This document shows positions 1 to 22,218 of a DNA stretch of 64,000 bases, in pieces. The notes below the pieces were generated by a model, which searched no databases, was not told the origin of the DNA, and saw only the letters and a program-made list of their open reading frames with translations. A program made the position numbers and the translations under genes. Each line of letters opens with the position of its first letter. Position 1 is the first letter of the stretch. This DNA comes from Candidatus Methylomirabilis sp. (GTDB taxonomy: Bacteria > Patescibacteriota > DYJS01): NCBI GenBank assembly GCA_020723005.1, contig DYJS01000001.1, positions 25,951 to 89,950 of the forward strand. Reading direction: 5' to 3'.

Positions 1-273
1 AGTGGAGTTTTGAATGGTGCTTTTAAAATAAAAAGTAATTTAGTTAGTTTGTCGGGTGGTTATATTTCAACAGTATTGGTTTTGGCTGGAGTTTTAGCGG
101 TTGTGTATATTATGATTGCAGGATTTAATTATTTAACATCTGCAGGAGACGATGGAAAGGCAAAAAAAGCAAAAGAAGGTTTGAGATCAGCAATTTTTGG
201 ATTGATTTATATTCTTCTTGCATATGGAATTGTTCGGTTAGTGAGACTTGTTTTGACAGGTTCACCAACATAA
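1..273 (+). CDS. VirB2/TrbC-like pilin-family small membrane protein, probably 5'-truncated by the window edge
   Basis: Two hydrophobic helices flank an AGDDGKAKKAKE loop, the same layout as the next two ORFs (GGDEKKVE-AKK). The ORF opens with TTG at position 10 and the frame stays open back to base 1. Confidence 0.5.
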   Translation, partial: SGVLNGAFKIKSNLVSLSGGYISTVLVLAGVLAVVYIMIAGFNYLTSAGDDGKAKKAKEGLRSAIFGLIYILLAYGIVRLVRLVLTGSPT

Positions 274-311
274 TTTTGTTAATTAAAATTTTTTATTATT
301 AATTTTTTAAT

Positions 312-620
312 ATGTTTAATATAAAGAAAGTTTTTTCAGCAACAAAACCACCAGCAGTTAATCTAAATAAAAATGGTGATTTTAATTGGACAAATATCTG
401 GACAGAGCTTCCTGATATGATTTCAGTTGTTTTGACGGTAGTTGGTGTTTTAGTTGTGATTTATTTGATTATGGGTGGTTTTAGATATATTACTGCTGGA
501 GGAGACGAAAAGAAAGTTGAGGTAGCGAAGAAAACAATTACAAATGCTATTATAGGTTTGATTGTTATTTTATTGGCATTTGCAATTATGCAAGGTGTAA
601 ATTCGTTAATTCAAGGTTAA
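312..620 (+). CDS. VirB2/TrbC-like pilin-family small membrane protein (paralog 2 of 3)
   Basis: Shares VLVVIYLIxGGFxYITAGGDEKKVEVAKK...IIGLIVILLAF with its neighbours. It has two TM helices and is a small tandem paralog. Confidence 0.55.
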   Translation: MFNIKKVFSATKPPAVNLNKNGDFNWTNIWTELPDMISVVLTVVGVLVVIYLIMGGFRYITAGGDEKKVEVAKKTITNAIIGLIVILLAFAIMQGVNSLIQG

Positions 621-624
621 TTGA

Positions 625-1200
625 ATGATAAAATTATTTGCAAAGCAGGTAAATGACAATAGTTTTGGATTAGGTAGTGTATTTTCTATTAAAGATATAT
701 GGCAATCTATTCCAGATTTCATATCAACAGCTATAATGTTGGCTGGAGTTTTGGTTGTAATATATTTGATAATTGCAGGTTTTCAATATTTATCATCTGG
801 AGGAGATGAGAAAAAAGTTGAGATTGCAAAGAAAAATATAAATTTCAGCATAACTGGACTTGTAATAGTTTTATTTTCATATGCACTTGTTAATGGATTG
901 ATGAGCTTACTTGGAACAAGACCTATGGACAATGGAGATGATACAATTTTTGAATTAAAGGTTTCGGTTGATAACTGTCCACCACAAACAGATATTATAA
1001 GATTTTCTTTTTCTGGTGGGTCTGGAACAAAGTATAGTCAATGTATTTTCTCTTCTAGTAAAGGATCAACAGGTTGGAAAGATTGTCTAGGTGGTTCTTT
1101 TGACACAGAGGGATTAATTGCAGATGATGGAACAGATGAATTTTATATTAAAGCATCTGATTCAGCAGGTCAAACTGCTCTTGATAGTTGTGTTTGGTAA
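625..1200 (+). CDS. VirB2/TrbC-like pilin-family protein with a Cys-containing C-terminal extension (paralog 3 of 3)
   Basis: Same N-terminal two-helix core (VLVVIYLIIAGFQYLSSGGDEKKVEIAKK), followed by about 100 extra residues with 4 Cys (DNCPPQ...C...C...C). Confidence 0.55.
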   Translation: MIKLFAKQVNDNSFGLGSVFSIKDIWQSIPDFISTAIMLAGVLVVIYLIIAGFQYLSSGGDEKKVEIAKKNINFSITGLVIVLFSYALVNGLMSLLGTRPMDNGDDTIFELKVSVDNCPPQTDIIRFSFSGGSGTKYSQCIFSSSKGSTGWKDCLGGSFDTEGLIADDGTDEFYIKASDSAGQTALDSCVW

Positions 1201-1220
1201 TATTTATAGATAGTTTAAAA

Positions 1221-1259
1221 AAATGAAATTGATAAATTTTGTCAATTTCATTTTTTTTA
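1221..1259 (+). terminator. Rho-independent terminator
   Basis: Inverted repeat atgaaattga / tcaatttcat around a taaatttt loop, followed by a T9 run, right after the pilin-like triplet. Confidence 0.5.
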
Positions 1260-1350
1260 TTATTTACCTATATTTTTGAAATTTTGTGTTATAAAATATT
1301 TATGTTGCAATTTTATAAAACTTTAATAGAAATAAAAGGAATTAAAAATT

Positions 1351-5890: not shown

Positions 5891-7486
5891 ATGAAAAATT
5901 TTTTATTTCGAATTTTCTTAATTTTTTCCTTTTTCTTTCCTTTCTCTTTTGAAAATAAAAAAAGTTTTGCGGAAGTTCAAAATTTTAAAAATTCAAAAGA
6001 GATTCGTTTGGGATTTGTTTACACGAAAGATTCAATAGATTCAATTGACAAATCTTTGAAAGCTTCTCAAAATTTTTTGAATGCAATTTCTCCAACATAT
6101 TACACAGTTCAAAAAAATGGTGTTGTCGAAAACGGAGAGATCTCTGAGATTACAGAAAAAATACGATCATATGGATTTAAAATTTATCCACGATTTAAAA
6201 ATTCTGAACAATTTGCAAATTTTGATGAATTTTTTTGGAATTCAGAATATCAAAAAAATGCAATTTCAAATATAAAAAATTTTACAGAAGGTTTTGACGG
6301 AGTAAATTTGGATTTTGAAGGCTTAAAAAAAGATCAGAAAGATAATTTTTCAAATTTTGTTTGTAATTTAAAAAGAGAGCTTGGAGATAAAATTTTGCAA
6401 GTTGATGTGATTTCAAAAAATGAATCTGTTGGAAATTCTTGGAGTGGAATTTATGATTATAAAAAACTTGGAGAATGTAGTGATTTTGTTTTGATTATGG
6501 CATATGATATGATTACTCCAAACAATAAAATTCCACAACCTTCTGCTCCAATTTGGTGGGTTGATAGTGTTGTGAATTATGCAAAATCAGAGATTTCTTC
6601 TGAAAAAATTATCTTAGGAACTCCTTTTTACGGAATTAGATGGAATTTAAAAACTTTAAAAGGAAGGGTTGTAAATTTTTCAGATGTGATGAATGATTTG
6701 GCAAATTCAAAGTCAAAGTGGGAAACTTTTGATAAAAATTCTGGAACTCAGTTTGCTCAATACACTTTGAATTCTGGAGAACAATTTGCAACTTGGTACG
6801 AAAACAATGCAACAGCAAAAGCTCGTTTTGAAATTTTTACAAAACACAATCTTGGTGGAATTGGTTTTTGGAGACTTACTCAGGAGGATTTTGCAACTTG
6901 GAATGGTTTTTTTGATTATGAATTTATTTCTCAGACAAAAACTTTCATCTCAATGAAACCGAACGAAACGAAAGAGGTTTTTGTTGAATTAAAAAATAGA
7001 GGTTCAAATATCTGGAAAAAAGGAGAATTTAAGCTTGGAACAACAAATAATCGAGACAGAATCTCTCTTTTCCTTTCAAAAAATAGAGTTGAAATTCCTA
7101 AAGATATTCTTCCAAACGAAACGATAAAAATTCCAATTCTTTTGAAAGCTCCAAATTATGAAGGAAGTTTTAAAGAGTATTTTTCTCCAGTTGTAGAAAA
7201 CAGATTTTGGCTTAAAGATATTGGAATTCATTTTGTTATTTTTGTTTCTACAGATGGCAACTCTTCCTGTTGTTCAATTTCTGAAAACAGTGAAAAAATT
7301 TTTATCTCTTCAGAAAAAAATAAACTTTTTGAATTGAAGATAAAAAATACAACAGATGAAGTTTGGAAAAAAGAAGATTTTTTTCTTTCTAATCCAGCAG
7401 ATGAAAATGAAAAATTGCAAATGGTTGAAAACGAGGTTTTGCCAAATGAATTTGCAACTTTTTTGATGAAAACTTCAAAAATGTAG
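5891..7486 (+). CDS. Secreted glycoside hydrolase family 18 (chitinase/peptidoglycan hydrolase-like)
   Basis: N-terminal signal peptide. The GH18 catalytic motif FDGVNLDFEG (DGxDxDxE) is present, plus MAYD and a long C-terminal domain. Confidence 0.75.
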   Translation: MKNFLFRIFLIFSFFFPFSFENKKSFAEVQNFKNSKEIRLGFVYTKDSIDSIDKSLKASQNFLNAISPTYYTVQKNGVVENGEISEITEKIRSYGFKIYPRFKNSEQFANFDEFFWNSEYQKNAISNIKNFTEGFDGVNLDFEGLKKDQKDNFSNFVCNLKRELGDKILQVDVISKNESVGNSWSGIYDYKKLGECSDFVLIMAYDMITPNNKIPQPSAPIWWVDSVVNYAKSEISSEKIILGTPFYGIRWNLKTLKGRVVNFSDVMNDLANSKSKWETFDKNSGTQFAQYTLNSGEQFATWYENNATAKARFEIFTKHNLGGIGFWRLTQEDFATWNGFFDYEFISQTKTFISMKPNETKEVFVELKNRGSNIWKKGEFKLGTTNNRDRISLFLSKNRVEIPKDILPNETIKIPILLKAPNYEGSFKEYFSPVVENRFWLKDIGIHFVIFVSTDGNSSCCSISENSEKIFISSEKNKLFELKIKNTTDEVWKKEDFFLSNPADENEKLQMVENEVLPNEFATFLMKTSKM

Positions 7487-11793: not shown

Positions 11794-13360
11794 TTGATTT
11801 TTGCATACTTTTTTTCTCTTTTTTCATCTGTTCAAAATTCAATAACAATAGATGAAGAGTATCATATTGTTCGCGGAATTTTTGCAATACAAACCAAAGA
11901 TTTTAGAATAAACATAGACCATCCACCATTTGCAAATGTTTTTGATGTAATTTTAGTGCAAATTTTTCTCTCACCAAAGTTTGATAAAACAGATTGGTGC
12001 TTTGAAGTTGCAAACAAAGATTGTCTTGCAGATAGATTTTTATTTGAATGGAATAAGGAGAAAATTTGGGAAATTCTTTTCTTAGCAAGAGCATCAAATT
12101 TAATTTTTTTTCTTGGACTTTTAATTTTAATTTTTTTCACAACAAAAAAATTTTTTGGTGAAAAATCTGCTTGGTTCGCCTTTTTAATTTCAATTTTTTG
12201 GCCAAATTTTTTGAGTAGTGGAATTAGCATTACAACAGATATGGCTTCATCATTTTTCTTTTTTACAATTTTTTCTTTTATAATTTTTAATTTTGAAAAT
12301 TTTGAAAAAATCTTTTTTTCAATCATACTTGGAATTTTACTTGGTGCTGGAATGCTCATAAAATATTCATTGGTTGCAATTTTGCCAATAATTATTTTTT
12401 TATATTTTTGGAGATTTGATAAACCAATTTTAAAAGGTTTAATTTCTGCTTTTTTTATGCTTTTTATTATTTCTGCTGGCTATCTTTTTCAATTCAAATC
12501 TTGGAAAGAAACTCCAAAATCAGAAAGTCATACAGAGTGGTATTTGGATTTATTTTTTGGAAAGTTCAGACAAGAAAATTAAGCCTGCAATAAAGTTTTT
12601 TTATGAAGATTTAAAAACTCCTTTTGTGTATTGGTATCGTGGTTTTTTTGATAATGGAATGGGACAATATTCTGGTGTAAGAGAAAAATATAGTTTTTTT
12701 TTAAATGAACAATCTAAAGATGGTTTTAAATTTTATTTTCTTTTCTCTTTTGTTTTCAAAAATCCAATTTCAACAACAATAATTTTTATTTTTTCTTCTA
12801 TTTTTTTACTAAAGAAAAAAAAATTATTGGACGAAGAAAAATTACTTTTTGGAATTTTTATATTTTTAATTTTTATTTTTTCTATAAGCAAAATAAATCT
12901 TGGTTATAGACATGGAATTTTAGCAGATCCTTTCACAATTCTTATCTCTTCGTATATTTTTTCAATTAAAAAATTCGGGAAAATTTTTATTCCACTTTCA
13001 GTTTTTGGTTTTGTCTCTGTGATTTCATCTTTTCCTCACACAATTTCCTATATAAACAATTTGGTTTCTGAAAAAGATAAATTTCATCTTTTTAGAAGTT
13101 CCAACATTGAATGGGGACAAGATGATTTTAGAGCTAAAAAATTTGCAAAATTTTTGGGAAAAAAATCTGAAAAAAAAGTTTACATATATTCTACTTTTTT
13201 AGATTTAGAAAAAATTGCACAAGATTCAGATTCATATATTTTGATTGGAAGCAATTCACTTTCTGGACACAACATAATATCTTCTGAAAAAACAAAAATT
13301 TTACGAGGAAAAATTCCAATTTATGTTTTGTTTGGAAGTTGGTATGTTTTTGAGATTTAA
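11794..13360 (+). pseudogene. GT83/PMT_2-family (ArnT-like) membrane glycosyltransferase split into two ORFs by a frameshift at a T6 run; could be a pseudogene or a homopolymer sequencing error
   Basis: ORF 11794..12582 has the N-terminus ...ITIDEEYHIVRGI...HPPFANVF and many TM segments. ORF 12557..13360 starts with TTG and continues in another frame. The two overlap at tattttttgg (12551-12560). Confidence 0.4.
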
Positions 13361-18918: not shown

Positions 18919-21900
18919 ATGAATTTTAAACAAAAAATTTTTTCATTTTTCGCAAGTATGTTGATTTTTTCATCCTCTGCTAAAGCAGAAGATATGGATG
19001 TAAATATCAATGTTAGTGATACAACAACTATATATTCTTCTGTTACAACACCTGTTGATAATTCAGTTGTTTCGTCAGTTCCATTTTTTTCCGGAACTGC
19101 AGGTGCAACATCAACAACTGTTGCAAAAGTTGATCTTTCTTTAAGAGATAATCAAACTGGTTGGTTTTGGGATCCTTCAACAAATTCTTGGAATATTTCA
19201 GAAGTTTGGTTTGTTGCAGAAGGAACAAATTCTTGGAATTTTTCTGGGAATATGCCAACTTGGACAGAGGGAAGAAATTATTCTGTTCGTTCTAGAGCAA
19301 CAGGTGCAAATAGTATCGTTGAAACTCCTGGAGCTGGCAATGATTTTACATATAGAACTACAAATGCTTTAAGAATTTCTCCAGAATATGTTCAATTACA
19401 AAAAGGAACACAATTTACATTTTCTGCATATAATGGGGTTGGAAATTATGTTTGGACAACAAATTCAAATTTTGGCAGAATTGTTCCAGTTGGAACAGGA
19501 TCGGAAGCAGTGTTTGTTGCAGATGAAGTTACAACAAATTCGTATACAACAGTAACTGTTCAAAGTGGAACAGAAAGTGCAACAGCAATTGTTGTCATCA
19601 CAGAAAATTTAGGAAGATTATTGGATTTAATACCAGATTTTTCTACAATTGAAAAAAACTCATCAGTTGAACTTTTAGCTCTTGGAGGATTGAATTCTAT
19701 GAGTTATAATTGGGAAGTTAAAGATGAAAATGGTCAAAATGTTTCTGGATTTCTTCCAAGTTTAACAACGGAAGAAAATACAAATGTTTTTACAGGTCTT
19801 TCAACTGGTGTTTATAGTGTAAAAGTTGTAAATAATGGAGTTTCTGATACATCTTATATTCTTGTTATTGAGCAGGGCTCAAATCTTTTGGAAGTTGATC
19901 CACCACATACAAATCTAGACGAAAATGAAACTTCAAATATAAGTGTTTTAGGTTCTGTTGGAGATGTGAATTGGAGAATTTTAGATACAGAAATTGCAGA
20001 TATAAATGGTTCATCAACAGGAACAACAATAGAAGTTGAGGGTGATGAATATGGATATACACAAGCAGTTGTTTCTGATTCTCTTGGAAATTATGGAGTT
20101 GGTCATATCTCTGTTAATAATTCTGGTTCATCAACACTTTTTTACATTGATCCTAGTACAGCAGTTATTCCTGTTGGATCTGCAGTAAATTTAAGTGTTT
20201 ATGGAGGAGATGGAAGTGTTAGCTGGAGAATGAGTAATCAAACAGTTGGAACAACAAATATTATAGGTGATAGAAGAGCAATTTTTACAGGAGTCTCTGA
20301 AGGTGCAGTTGATGTAACTGTTCAAGATAGTAGTGGAAATGAAGTTGTTTCAAAAATTTTAGTTGTAAAAATTCCACCAATTACTTGCGAAGCAGGTTCT
20401 ACTGAAGTTGAATGTCAGTTTTCTGATACAGAATTATATCTTCTTCCAAATTTTTCTGTTTTACCAATTGGAGGAACTCAAAATTTTACAGCCTACAATG
20501 TTCAAGGAAGTGCAACTTGGGAGTTATCATCAACAGAATTTGGTTCGATTAACCAAACAACAGGAGATCAGGTTACTTTTTCTGCAACACAAATTGGAGA
20601 GCTTGATCTTTCGGTCAGAGATACTGGTGGTAGAGCATCAACAGCAAGAATTATGATTTTTGACCCCCTTGATCCACCACCTTCAAATAGAGAATTTTCA
20701 GTTATTCCAGGTTTTTCTGTTTTATATCCAGGTCAGGTTGTTATAATGGGAATTGCAGGAAGTCAAGAAATTATAAATGAGGGTGTTACTTGGAGCTCTT
20801 TAAATGAATCTGTTGCAATAATAGATCCAACAACAGGAGTTTTAACTGCAGGAGTAATACCAGGAACAACGACAATTATTGCAAGAACTCCTTCTGGAGA
20901 AGAAGCATATGCAACTGTTATTGTTTCAAATCCAAACGATTCGCTTGATGTAAATCCGAAATTTTTAGAATTAGACATAGAAGAAACTGCACAACTTTTT
21001 GTTTCTGGTGGAAGTGGTCCAATTCAATACACATCAACGAATTCAAGCATAGCATCAGTTGATTCAAACGGTGTTGTTCGTGGTGTTTCTGTTGGAAATG
21101 CAACAATTATTGTAACAAGATCTGGAAAGGTTGGTTTTTCAAATATAACAGTTGTTGATCCAAATTCACAAAGCTTTTATTTAACACCATCTTTTTCAGA
21201 AGTTCCAGTTGGATATTCTCAAATTATAGTTCCAAAAAATTTTTCTGGATCGGCAGACAATATAGTTTGGACAAGCTCTGATCCAGCAAATTTTGAAATT
21301 ATAAAATTAACCCCTGAAGATCCAAATTATCAAGTAGGAGCAGTTAAAGTAAATGTTCGTTCTGCAACATATGCAACAATAAAAGCTCAAGACGAATCTG
21401 GAAAAGAGGCAACTGCAACAGTTAGTGGTATTGAAGAAAATCTTGCAGATCTTGTAAATAATCCTTCCTCTGTTTCTTTTTCAAAAGTTGGTGAATGTAT
21501 TACAATTCAAGTTTTAAATAAATCTGCTAATGCGACAGGTTATACTTTTGAATCATCAAATCCAACATATGTTCAGGTTGATGAGAATGGAAGAATTTGT
21601 GCAGTAAATCTTCCAATTTCTGGAACTGCTCAAGTTATAATCACAACAACAGAAGAAGGAACAGGAAGAACAGCAGAAACAGTAGTTACTTTAATTGGGA
21701 CATCAACAAATGATACAGATGGTGACGGAATGCCAGATTGGTGGGAAGATCAATATCCTTGTATGGATAAAAATACATCAGATTGGGACAGAGATTATGA
21801 TAATGACGGATGGAATAATATGGAAGAATATCTTGCAGGAACAAATCCTTGTGATGCTGGTTCAATTCCAACAGATACAGATGGTGACGGAATGCCAGAT

Positions 21901-22218
21901 TGGTGGGAAATTGAAAATGGTTTAGATCCAAATGATCCATCAGACAGAGACGAAGATCCAGATAATGATGGATTAACAAACTTTGAAGAATATCATGATG
22001 TTATTAAAAAATATGGTGGAACAGCAGATCCATTTGATCCTGACACAGATAATGATGGATTTTCAGATGGTGATGAAATGAAAAAATTTGGAACAAATCC
22101 ACTTGTCCCAAATGGCAAAAAAACAAATCCAAATACTGGAACAAGCTCAATAATTATTCTTTTAAGCACATTGATTGCAATCAAGTTTTCAAAAAGCTTA
22201 AAATTTAAAAAACAATAA
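18919..22218 (+). CDS. Large cell-surface protein with multiple Big_2 (bacterial Ig-like) domains, TSP3-like Ca-binding repeats and a C-terminal anchor
   Basis: Has a signal peptide. It carries at least 6 Big_2-like repeats, for example VSGGSGPIQYTSTNSSIASVDSNGVVRGVSVGNATIIVT. The repeat TDTDGDGMPDWWE occurs twice with identical DNA. The C-terminus is NPNTGTSS + TM + KSLKFKKQ. Confidence 0.75.
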   Translation: MNFKQKIFSFFASMLIFSSSAKAEDMDVNINVSDTTTIYSSVTTPVDNSVVSSVPFFSGTAGATSTTVAKVDLSLRDNQTGWFWDPSTNSWNISEVWFVAEGTNSWNFSGNMPTWTEGRNYSVRSRATGANSIVETPGAGNDFTYRTTNALRISPEYVQLQKGTQFTFSAYNGVGNYVWTTNSNFGRIVPVGTGSEAVFVADEVTTNSYTTVTVQSGTESATAIVVITENLGRLLDLIPDFSTIEKNSSVELLALGGLNSMSYNWEVKDENGQNVSGFLPSLTTEENTNVFTGLSTGVYSVKVVNNGVSDTSYILVIEQGSNLLEVDPPHTNLDENETSNISVLGSVGDVNWRILDTEIADINGSSTGTTIEVEGDEYGYTQAVVSDSLGNYGVGHISVNNSGSSTLFYIDPSTAVIPVGSAVNLSVYGGDGSVSWRMSNQTVGTTNIIGDRRAIFTGVSEGAVDVTVQDSSGNEVVSKILVVKIPPITCEAGSTEVECQFSDTELYLLPNFSVLPIGGTQNFTAYNVQGSATWELSSTEFGSINQTTGDQVTFSATQIGELDLSVRDTGGRASTARIMIFDPLDPPPSNREFSVIPGFSVLYPGQVVIMGIAGSQEIINEGVTWSSLNESVAIIDPTTGVLTAGVIPGTTTIIARTPSGEEAYATVIVSNPNDSLDVNPKFLELDIEETAQLFVSGGSGPIQYTSTNSSIASVDSNGVVRGVSVGNATIIVTRSGKVGFSNITVVDPNSQSFYLTPSFSEVPVGYSQIIVPKNFSGSADNIVWTSSDPANFEIIKLTPEDPNYQVGAVKVNVRSATYATIKAQDESGKEATATVSGIEENLADLVNNPSSVSFSKVGECITIQVLNKSANATGYTFESSNPTYVQVDENGRICAVNLPISGTAQVIITTTEEGTGRTAETVVTLIGTSTNDTDGDGMPDWWEDQYPCMDKNTSDWDRDYDNDGWNNMEEYLAGTNPCDAGSIPTDTDGDGMPDWWEIENGLDPNDPSDRDEDPDNDGLTNFEEYHDVIKKYGGTADPFDPDTDNDGFSDGDEMKKFGTNPLVPNGKKTNPNTGTSSIIILLSTLIAIKFSKSLKFKKQ

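Follow-up and report, generated by a model that had tools for sequence, protein, structure and literature searches.

A tandem array of three T4SS_pilin-family genes outside a T4SS cluster in a Patescibacteria genome, with a predicted Ig-like tail on the third pilin

In Patescibacteria, 441 arrays of 2–11 divergent VirB2-like pilin genes have been reported, with array paralogs averaging 25% identity and reaching 54% at most; 1135 of 1948 assemblies have a pilin gene close to virB4, and in about 40% of assemblies the pilins lie away from virB4 yet a T4SS is present (PMC12102498). In Southlakia epibionticum ML1, a six-gene pilin array inside the T4SS locus is essential and the T4SS comes without coupling protein and relaxase (PMC10633639; PMC12857230). 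Nanosynbacter lyticus TM7x also has a VirB2-like pilin array (PMC12102498, PMC10633639, PMC12857230). The function of the S. epibionticum system has been called 'completely unknown' (PMC11665869) and, according to the cited reviews, a pilus is yet to be visualised for a Patescibacteria T4SS. S. epibionticum, in which T4SS and pilin array are essential, is the sole genetically tractable patescibacterium.

The window analyzed here, by which we mean the whole stretch of 64 000 nucleotides (GC content 27%), opens at positions 1–1200 with three adjacent paralogous open reading frames on the same (+) strand, named P1, P2 and P3 in the following. P1 (1–273, +) is cut at its 5′ end by the window edge, with the open reading frame listed at 10–273; in full it encodes 103 residues (L001 9651–9962) and its true ATG lies 39 nt upstream of window base 1. 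It is followed after 38 nt by P2 (312–620, +; 102 residues) and then, after only 4 nt, by P3 (625–1200, +; 191 residues), which consists of a pilin core and a C-terminal tail. Hydropathy analysis gave two hydrophobic segments in each of the three proteins, which are 36–49% identical to each other over two hydrophobic helices flanking a loop of the type S/AGGDEKKVE-AKK. The loop of P1 reads SAGDDGKAKKAKE, and that of P2 reads AGGDEKKVEVAKK, being placed between hydrophobic helices at about residues 36–60 and 75–98. A preliminary description of this DNA had recognized three adjacent paralogs having a two-helix core around a GGDEKKVE-AKK loop, as was confirmed by the reading frames, identities and hydropathy given above. 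It had also placed the array at the edge of the contig, which was found to be incorrect: the contig goes on for about 26 kb upstream and the array is situated at the edge of the window. In contig CCXGSS010000015.1 (GCA_973415815.1; 117 951 bp), the window corresponds approximately to record positions 28 030–92 029, reversed.

The three genes are packed as in an operon, with tight spacing, a terminator and a promoter-like site. The probable intrinsic terminator closing P1-P2-P3 is an AT-rich hairpin at 1217–1263 (+) with 20-nt arms followed by a run of T, in which the arms of the inverted repeat are 95% complementary and the RNA folds at −21.4 kcal/mol (z = −8.2 against shuffles); a consensus scan missed this hairpin because it contains too few G–C pairs. 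The promoter-like site is the sigma-70-like sequence TTGACA-16-TAGTAT located 22 nt before the start of P1, as given by consensus match only. At the DNA level the cores of the three genes are 62–71% identical and the duplication must therefore be old, and neither recent duplications nor gene-conversion tracts could be found among them at this level.

All three proteins are members of the Patescibacteria T4SS_pilin family PF18895. With a curated gathering threshold of 26.6 bits for this family, the scores were 41.9 bits for P1, 41.6 bits for P2 and 34.3 bits for P3, with the precomputed annotation in agreement. This substantiated the initial assignment of the triplet to a pilin family. The alignments furthermore displayed the family signature aGF.y.TAGGD..K...AK...a.iGL, in which G56, T61, G64, A72 and G82 are invariant or nearly so, and the GGDEKKVE-AKK motif of P1–P3 is in fact this signature. 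For the pilin core of P3 (residues 1–97, 625–915, +), AlphaFold2 modeling gave a helical hairpin with helices at residues 22–56 and 62–95 (pLDDT 81–88). A profile search yielded 128 homologs at E ≤ 0.001, whereof 120 were listed, nearly all of them belonging to PF18895 and some also to PF04956. Among the matches listed, every homolog having a taxon in its source name came from Patescibacteria or from an unclassified 'bacterium', with Saccharibacteria, Uhrbacteria, Falkowbacteria and Magasanikbacteria among the lineages, and several carry the name 'pilin' from NCBI. A word-indexed homolog search using full-length P3 recovered solely P3 itself. The triplet also agrees with the array definition of Quinonero-Coronel et al. 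2025, i.e. 2–11 pilin genes in tandem or one gene apart that are divergent paralogs.

The locus thereby shares several traits with the arrays of S. epibionticum and TM7x, including the Pfam family, the tandem arrangement on one strand of paralogs that diverge in sequence but keep their structure, a chromosomal location in a low-GC CPR genome and the lack of a relaxase or coupling protein nearby, as is the case also for the published arrays. Unlike those arrays, however, P1–P3 are found outside of a T4SS cluster (no VirB4 in 83 kb), have no signal peptide and follow directly upon an Amidase_2 gene. An Ig-like tail on a pilin is, furthermore, not mentioned in PMC12102498, PMC10633639 or PMC12857230. 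The tandem pilin array as such has thus already been described in Patescibacteria, and what this locus adds is the pilin-Ig fusion, the lack of signal peptides and the free-standing site beside an amidase.

Compared with the classical conjugative pilins, the homology of P1–P3 appears to be only remote at the level of sequence. The preliminary description had called the proteins VirB2/TrbC-like; P3 alone gave a match to PF04956, at 14.4 bits (E 0.047, helix register correct) against a gathering score of 27.9 bits, with no match for P1 or P2. Aligning the family profile with mature VirB2 of Agrobacterium tumefaciens using hhalign gave a weak match with both helices in register (P 0.003, probability 10%). 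A profile search of the PDB with the pilin family retrieved no solved pilin, only a spurious match to YidC, and a Foldseek search of the PDB using the hairpin model of P3 was non-significant, having the conjugation pilus of A. pernix (8dfu) at rank 9 with E 0.88. The likeness to Agrobacterium VirB2, RP4 TrbC and F TraA lies in the small size, the two hydrophobic helices with a short charged loop and the predicted N-out/C-out hairpin. The differences are the scores below the PF04956 cutoff, the lack of a long cleaved leader and the monoderm host. We found no N-terminal signal peptide in P1–P3, the first 25–30 residues of which contain no hydrophobic segment (maximal Kyte–Doolittle mean over 19 residues below 0.8), and the reading frames cannot be lengthened upstream; in contrast, signal peptides are found in most PF18895 members as well as in classical VirB2, TrbC and TraA. 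Nor did P1–P3 give any evidence of cyclization, in contrast to classical pilins, and for P3 it would be precluded by the C-terminal domain.

With regards to size and setting, P1–P3 also resemble Mbov_0395 and MMCAP2_0565 of the Mycoplasma ICEs, which are likewise small hairpins lacking signal peptide in a wall-less or monoderm setting. Using the NF045849 model (Mbov_0395 pilin-like conjugal transfer; cutoff 40 bits), near full-length matches (positions 5–78 of 80) were obtained at 39.4 bits for P1 and 39.5 bits for P2, thus less than 1 bit below the cutoff, with P3 reaching 28.9 bits. Unlike those proteins, however, P1–P3 have no ICE context, with neither CDS5/CDS17-type genes nor an integrase.

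We next consider the tail of P3 (residues 98–191; 916–1200, +, stop codon included). The third paralog had been noted to append about 100 residues with four cysteines, and indeed these 94 residues contain exactly four (Cys118, Cys140, Cys154 and Cys189). When residues 98–191 were used in a full HMMER scan against 1.84 billion representatives, 13 matches were found, and besides P3 these were mostly giant multi-repeat proteins, such as one of 3534 aa in which 18 stretches matched (E 1.6e-29) and one of 5271 aa in which 44 did. Pfam Big_13 was found in four of six scanned tail-matching proteins, and 11 of the 15 repeat units that were extracted matched Big_13 individually. The tail of P3 by itself gave no match to Big_13 (PF19077, cutoff 27 bits) at E ≤ 0.1, nor any other Pfam match, and the scores of single repeats against the tail were low (at most 15 bits). 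Comparing the tail with the repeats using hhalign, however, gave a probability of 96.2% (E 2.7e-9), and in the alignment both share the motif FxFSG...(F/Y)xC...W..C...DGxxxFxVxAxDxAG, with Cys140 and Cys154 of P3 falling on a nearly invariant cysteine pair of the repeats. AlphaFold2 modeling with the tail-repeat alignment gave an all-β domain of six strands at a moderate pLDDT of 70.3 (pTM 0.60), the fold matches of which were generic; in a single-sequence model of full-length P3 the tail was left unmodeled (pLDDT <50). Taken together, these analyses support an Ig-like β-sandwich for the tail, with homology to the Big_13-type repeats of giant surface proteins. The Cys-containing extracellular module of the preliminary description could thus be specified as a β-sandwich related to adhesin-type repeats, for which a tip or adhesin function is what we infer.

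The motif, the central cysteine pair and the β-sandwich are shared with Big_13 repeats of RTX-type and other surface adhesins, but in P3 one copy alone is joined to a pilin, instead of tens of tandem repeats. Cys118 and Cys189 form an extra pair that is specific to the pilin-fused version and absent from the Big_13 repeats. The domain would be stabilized by two disulfides, the second of which would tie the first strand to the last through Cys118 and Cys189.

The pilin-Ig fusion is rare. Among the 120 family members listed, the tail following the pilin domain has a median of 3 residues and exceeds 50 residues in only two, P3 and P0045 (also Cys-rich), with tandem double pilins making up seven of the 120. 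Scans for other P3-type fusions, of species-representative genomes with a full-length alignment and of metagenome contigs with tail and full-length alignments, gave only pilin-core relatives or nothing; a word-indexed search with the tail alignment gave no match and also missed P3 itself. The fusion was thus seen in this contig, in near-identical assemblies and in one related genome only.

That related genome, GCA_054682915.1 ('Patescibacteria group bacterium'; locus L002), has the gene order holA-like, (cupin), Amidase_2, pilin, pilin and long pilin. Its orthologs of P1, P2 and P3 show 58, 65 and 58% identity, respectively, compared to 37–53% for paralog pairs. Since each ortholog pair is closer than any paralog pair, the triplet predates the split of the two genomes with the copies having kept their identity, and the presence of 1:1:1 orthologs also argues that P1–P3 are real genes. 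The third pilin of L002 has 196 residues, with a Thr-rich linker and a tail that is 52% identical to that of P3 and has all four cysteines kept. Downstream of its triplet is a gene for a 1046-aa Amidase_2+PA14 protein, with a DsbA-like gene nearby. In the window, the position directly after the terminator is instead taken by a very hydrophobic 237-aa orphan protein (1351–2064, +), which is thus not part of the unit, the downstream gene of L002 being different. This polytopic membrane protein was also considered as a VirB6-like partner and rejected, having no Pfam, NCBIfam or PHROG match and no relative in L002 or the other fetched loci.

The surroundings of the array were analyzed with regards to T4SS genes. 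Going outward from P1, the upstream genes encode a 331-aa Amidase_2 protein, a 319-aa holA-like protein (weak DNA_pol3_delta_C match) and a PMT_2 glycosyltransferase, followed by housekeeping genes that include those for thymidylate kinase, IF3, L35 and L20. The Amidase_2 protein (N-acetylmuramoyl-L-alanine amidase) is membrane-anchored with hydrophobic segments at its N- and C-terminal ends, and in both genomes its gene, coding for 328–331 aa, precedes the triplet by 35–49 nt (L001 8621–9616; L002 8594–9580). Pfam scans of the larger reading frames of the window, together with the annotations of the flanks, gave housekeeping and envelope genes only, and the 83 kb of the contig that were analyzed (window, L001 and L006) contained no VirB4, VirD4, PrgI or TraC-like gene. 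With a CPR VirB4 as phmmer query, VirB4 was detected in six other loci (E 1e-176 to 1e-190) but not in these three stretches, in line with the earlier statement that neither VirB4 nor VirD4 is encoded in the window.

In other lineages the family keeps different company. In Saccharibacteria (L008/L009) PF18895 genes adjoin those for VirB4, TraC-like and PrgI proteins, and VirB4 or other T4SS genes were found within 10 kb of the pilins in 9 of 17 informative related loci. Arrays or pilin-domain fusions next to T4SS genes are seen in L008/L009, L013, L014, L017, L019, L020 and L025, and in part in L018 and L021, with free-standing arrays of small pilins among housekeeping genes in this contig, L002, L003, L010, L012, L015, L016 and L023; arrays comparable to the present one occur in L003, L008, L010, L012, L015, L016 and L025. 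The existence of these two classes agrees with the survey in PMC12102498. A linkage of amidase and pilins as a general rule found no support, being seen in L001 and L002 only. We also observed, in L013 (6625–10954), L014, L017 and L019–L022, pilin domains fused to larger proteins inside the T4SS clusters of other CPR lineages, either at the C-terminal end of proteins of 490–836 aa or within proteins of 245–579 aa, these fusions being encoded a few kb ahead of VirB4. The hairpin would thus seem to be a reusable membrane module of the T4SS and not only a free pilin.

Considering all of these results, we regard P1–P3 as free-standing VirB2-like pilins that serve as subunits for a T4SS encoded elsewhere, with P3 displaying an Ig domain, and would give this reading a probability of roughly 60%. 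The three proteins would then be two-helix membrane hairpins, most likely with both termini facing outward and the basic GGDEKKVE-AKK loop on the cytoplasmic side. An N-out/C-out hairpin is the topology of VirB2 and TraA, and in the structures of the F- and T-pilus the loop lines the lumen with both termini on the outer surface. For P3 the same orientation, with the C-terminus out, the loop in and the N-tail of about 30 signal-less residues out, is suggested because its Ig-like Cys domain resembles extracellular adhesin repeats. By analogy with the F and T pilins, the subunits would be pulled from a membrane pool and polymerized by a VirB4-powered T4SS of monoderm type (MPF-FATA-like). Since the termini would be located on the outer surface of such a pilus, the C-terminal domain of P3 would decorate the filament. 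P3 could accordingly be a domain-bearing minor, tip or coat subunit, presenting a binding or spacer domain at the surface of the filament or of the cell, plausibly to make contact with the host cell on which CPR epibionts depend, with P1 and P2 as plain structural or variant subunits. The upstream Amidase_2 protein could open the peptidoglycan, a role that comes to mind because VirB1 is mostly missing in CPR (PMC12102498).

It is less probable, though conceivable, that P1–P3 are instead envelope proteins independent of any T4SS, which would stay in the cytoplasmic membrane and never polymerize but have a small structural or anchoring role, with P3 as a membrane-anchored Ig-like surface protein and the amidase perhaps joining them in wall remodeling. 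The housekeeping surroundings, 83 kb of which contained no T4SS gene, would agree with this, as would the similarly free-standing arrays of L002, L003, L010, L012, L015 and L016, the lack of signal peptides in P1–P3, the remote link to classical pilins and the Amidase_2 gene directly upstream both in this contig and in L002. The family is, however, embedded in T4SS clusters of other lineages and in S. epibionticum both the T4SS and its pilin array are essential (PMC10633639). In about 40% of assemblies, moreover, pilins are found at a distance from virB4 although a T4SS is kept (PMC12102498). The adjacency to the amidase, being confined to two close relatives, may furthermore be inherited synteny. 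That same amidase has matches among phage lysis families (phrog_822, E 3e-15) and, together with the small size and two transmembrane segments of P1–P3, could bring to mind the lysis cassette of a prophage remnant, with P1–P3 as holins and the amidase as endolysin. This we find hardly credible, as the amidase itself carries membrane segments at both ends, the flanks are of housekeeping type without phage genes, and three clear PF18895 paralogs, one of which bears an Ig domain, do not fit with a holin. Holin identity was also rejected directly, with no PHROG holin match and only a Pfam trace of Holin_SPP1 (E 0.25).

The multiplicity of the genes could have another reason. The paralogs might be alternative major pilins by which host range or antigenicity is varied, as has been proposed for the VirB2 paralogs of Bartonella and Anaplasma; this would be compatible with free-standing pilins serving a distant T4SS and differ only in why there are several. 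Such variation has been proposed for CPR arrays (PMC12102498) and P1–P3 are indeed only 36–49% identical. We nonetheless hold it to be quite improbable here, as two diverged genomes have retained the triplet in 1:1:1 orthology, orthologs being closer than paralogs, which argues for fixed and distinct roles and against rapid turnover, and as the DNA carries no trace of recent duplication or gene conversion.

Returning to P1–P3 as pilins of a T4SS encoded elsewhere, a more far-reaching version can be formulated, which is speculative and on balance unlikely. P3 would in that case be a pilin-adhesin fusion with a disulfide-stabilized Ig domain, such that the CPR T4SS filament itself bears a host-recognition module, on its shaft or as a cap, in replacement of the VirB5/PrgB-type adhesins that are absent in Patescibacteria, with the membrane-anchored amidase as a stand-in for VirB1. 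As a further example of a catalogued type of array, found in an uncultivated organism, the locus is a lead and not a discovery. Still, an Ig-bearing pilin suggests that the C-terminus of such subunits is surface-exposed and tolerant of cargo, P3 becomes a candidate for a determinant of host contact in a phylum from which no T4SS adhesin is known, and its Ig domain might offer a natural epitope or handle for labeling such filaments.

Some additional observations were made. A PMT_2 glycosyltransferase gene (L001 5943–7541) lies 2 kb upstream of the triplet. The six-gene pilin arrays of L003 (5687–8612) and L010 (5509–8518), from two CPR lineages, have a divergent flanking unannotated protein of 524 and 544 aa, respectively, which is conserved between them (E 4e-101 to each other), and are also flanked by PMT_2 glycosyltransferase and GT2. 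The occurrence of PMT_2 near pilin arrays, together with the Thr-rich linker in the P3 ortholog of L002, may hint at glycosylation of the pilin or envelope. Within the window, at 11794–13360 (+), another PMT_2-like glycosyltransferase is split into two overlapping reading frames of 262 and 267 aa. Each of them has homology with the intact paralog of 532 aa that is encoded upstream of the array (E 1e-57 and 2e-49, respectively), and the split probably reflects a frameshift, a pseudogene or an assembly error.

A NUDIX hydrolase gene at 2133–2617 (−) is apparently also broken, here into four short consecutive reading frames, with a NUDIX-box-like motif GGx5Ex7REx2EExG in a 49-aa piece at 2364–2513; it is likely a pseudogene or the result of sequencing frameshifts. 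At 5891–7486 (+) lies the gene for a chitinase-like GH18 protein of 531 aa, in which a weak Ig-like domain (N_BRCA1_IG) was found; the genome is one of very reduced metabolism. Finally, the window encodes at 18919–22218 (+) a 1099-aa protein having Big_2 Ig-like domains and bacterial TSP3 repeats, which makes it a candidate for a large surface protein or adhesin.
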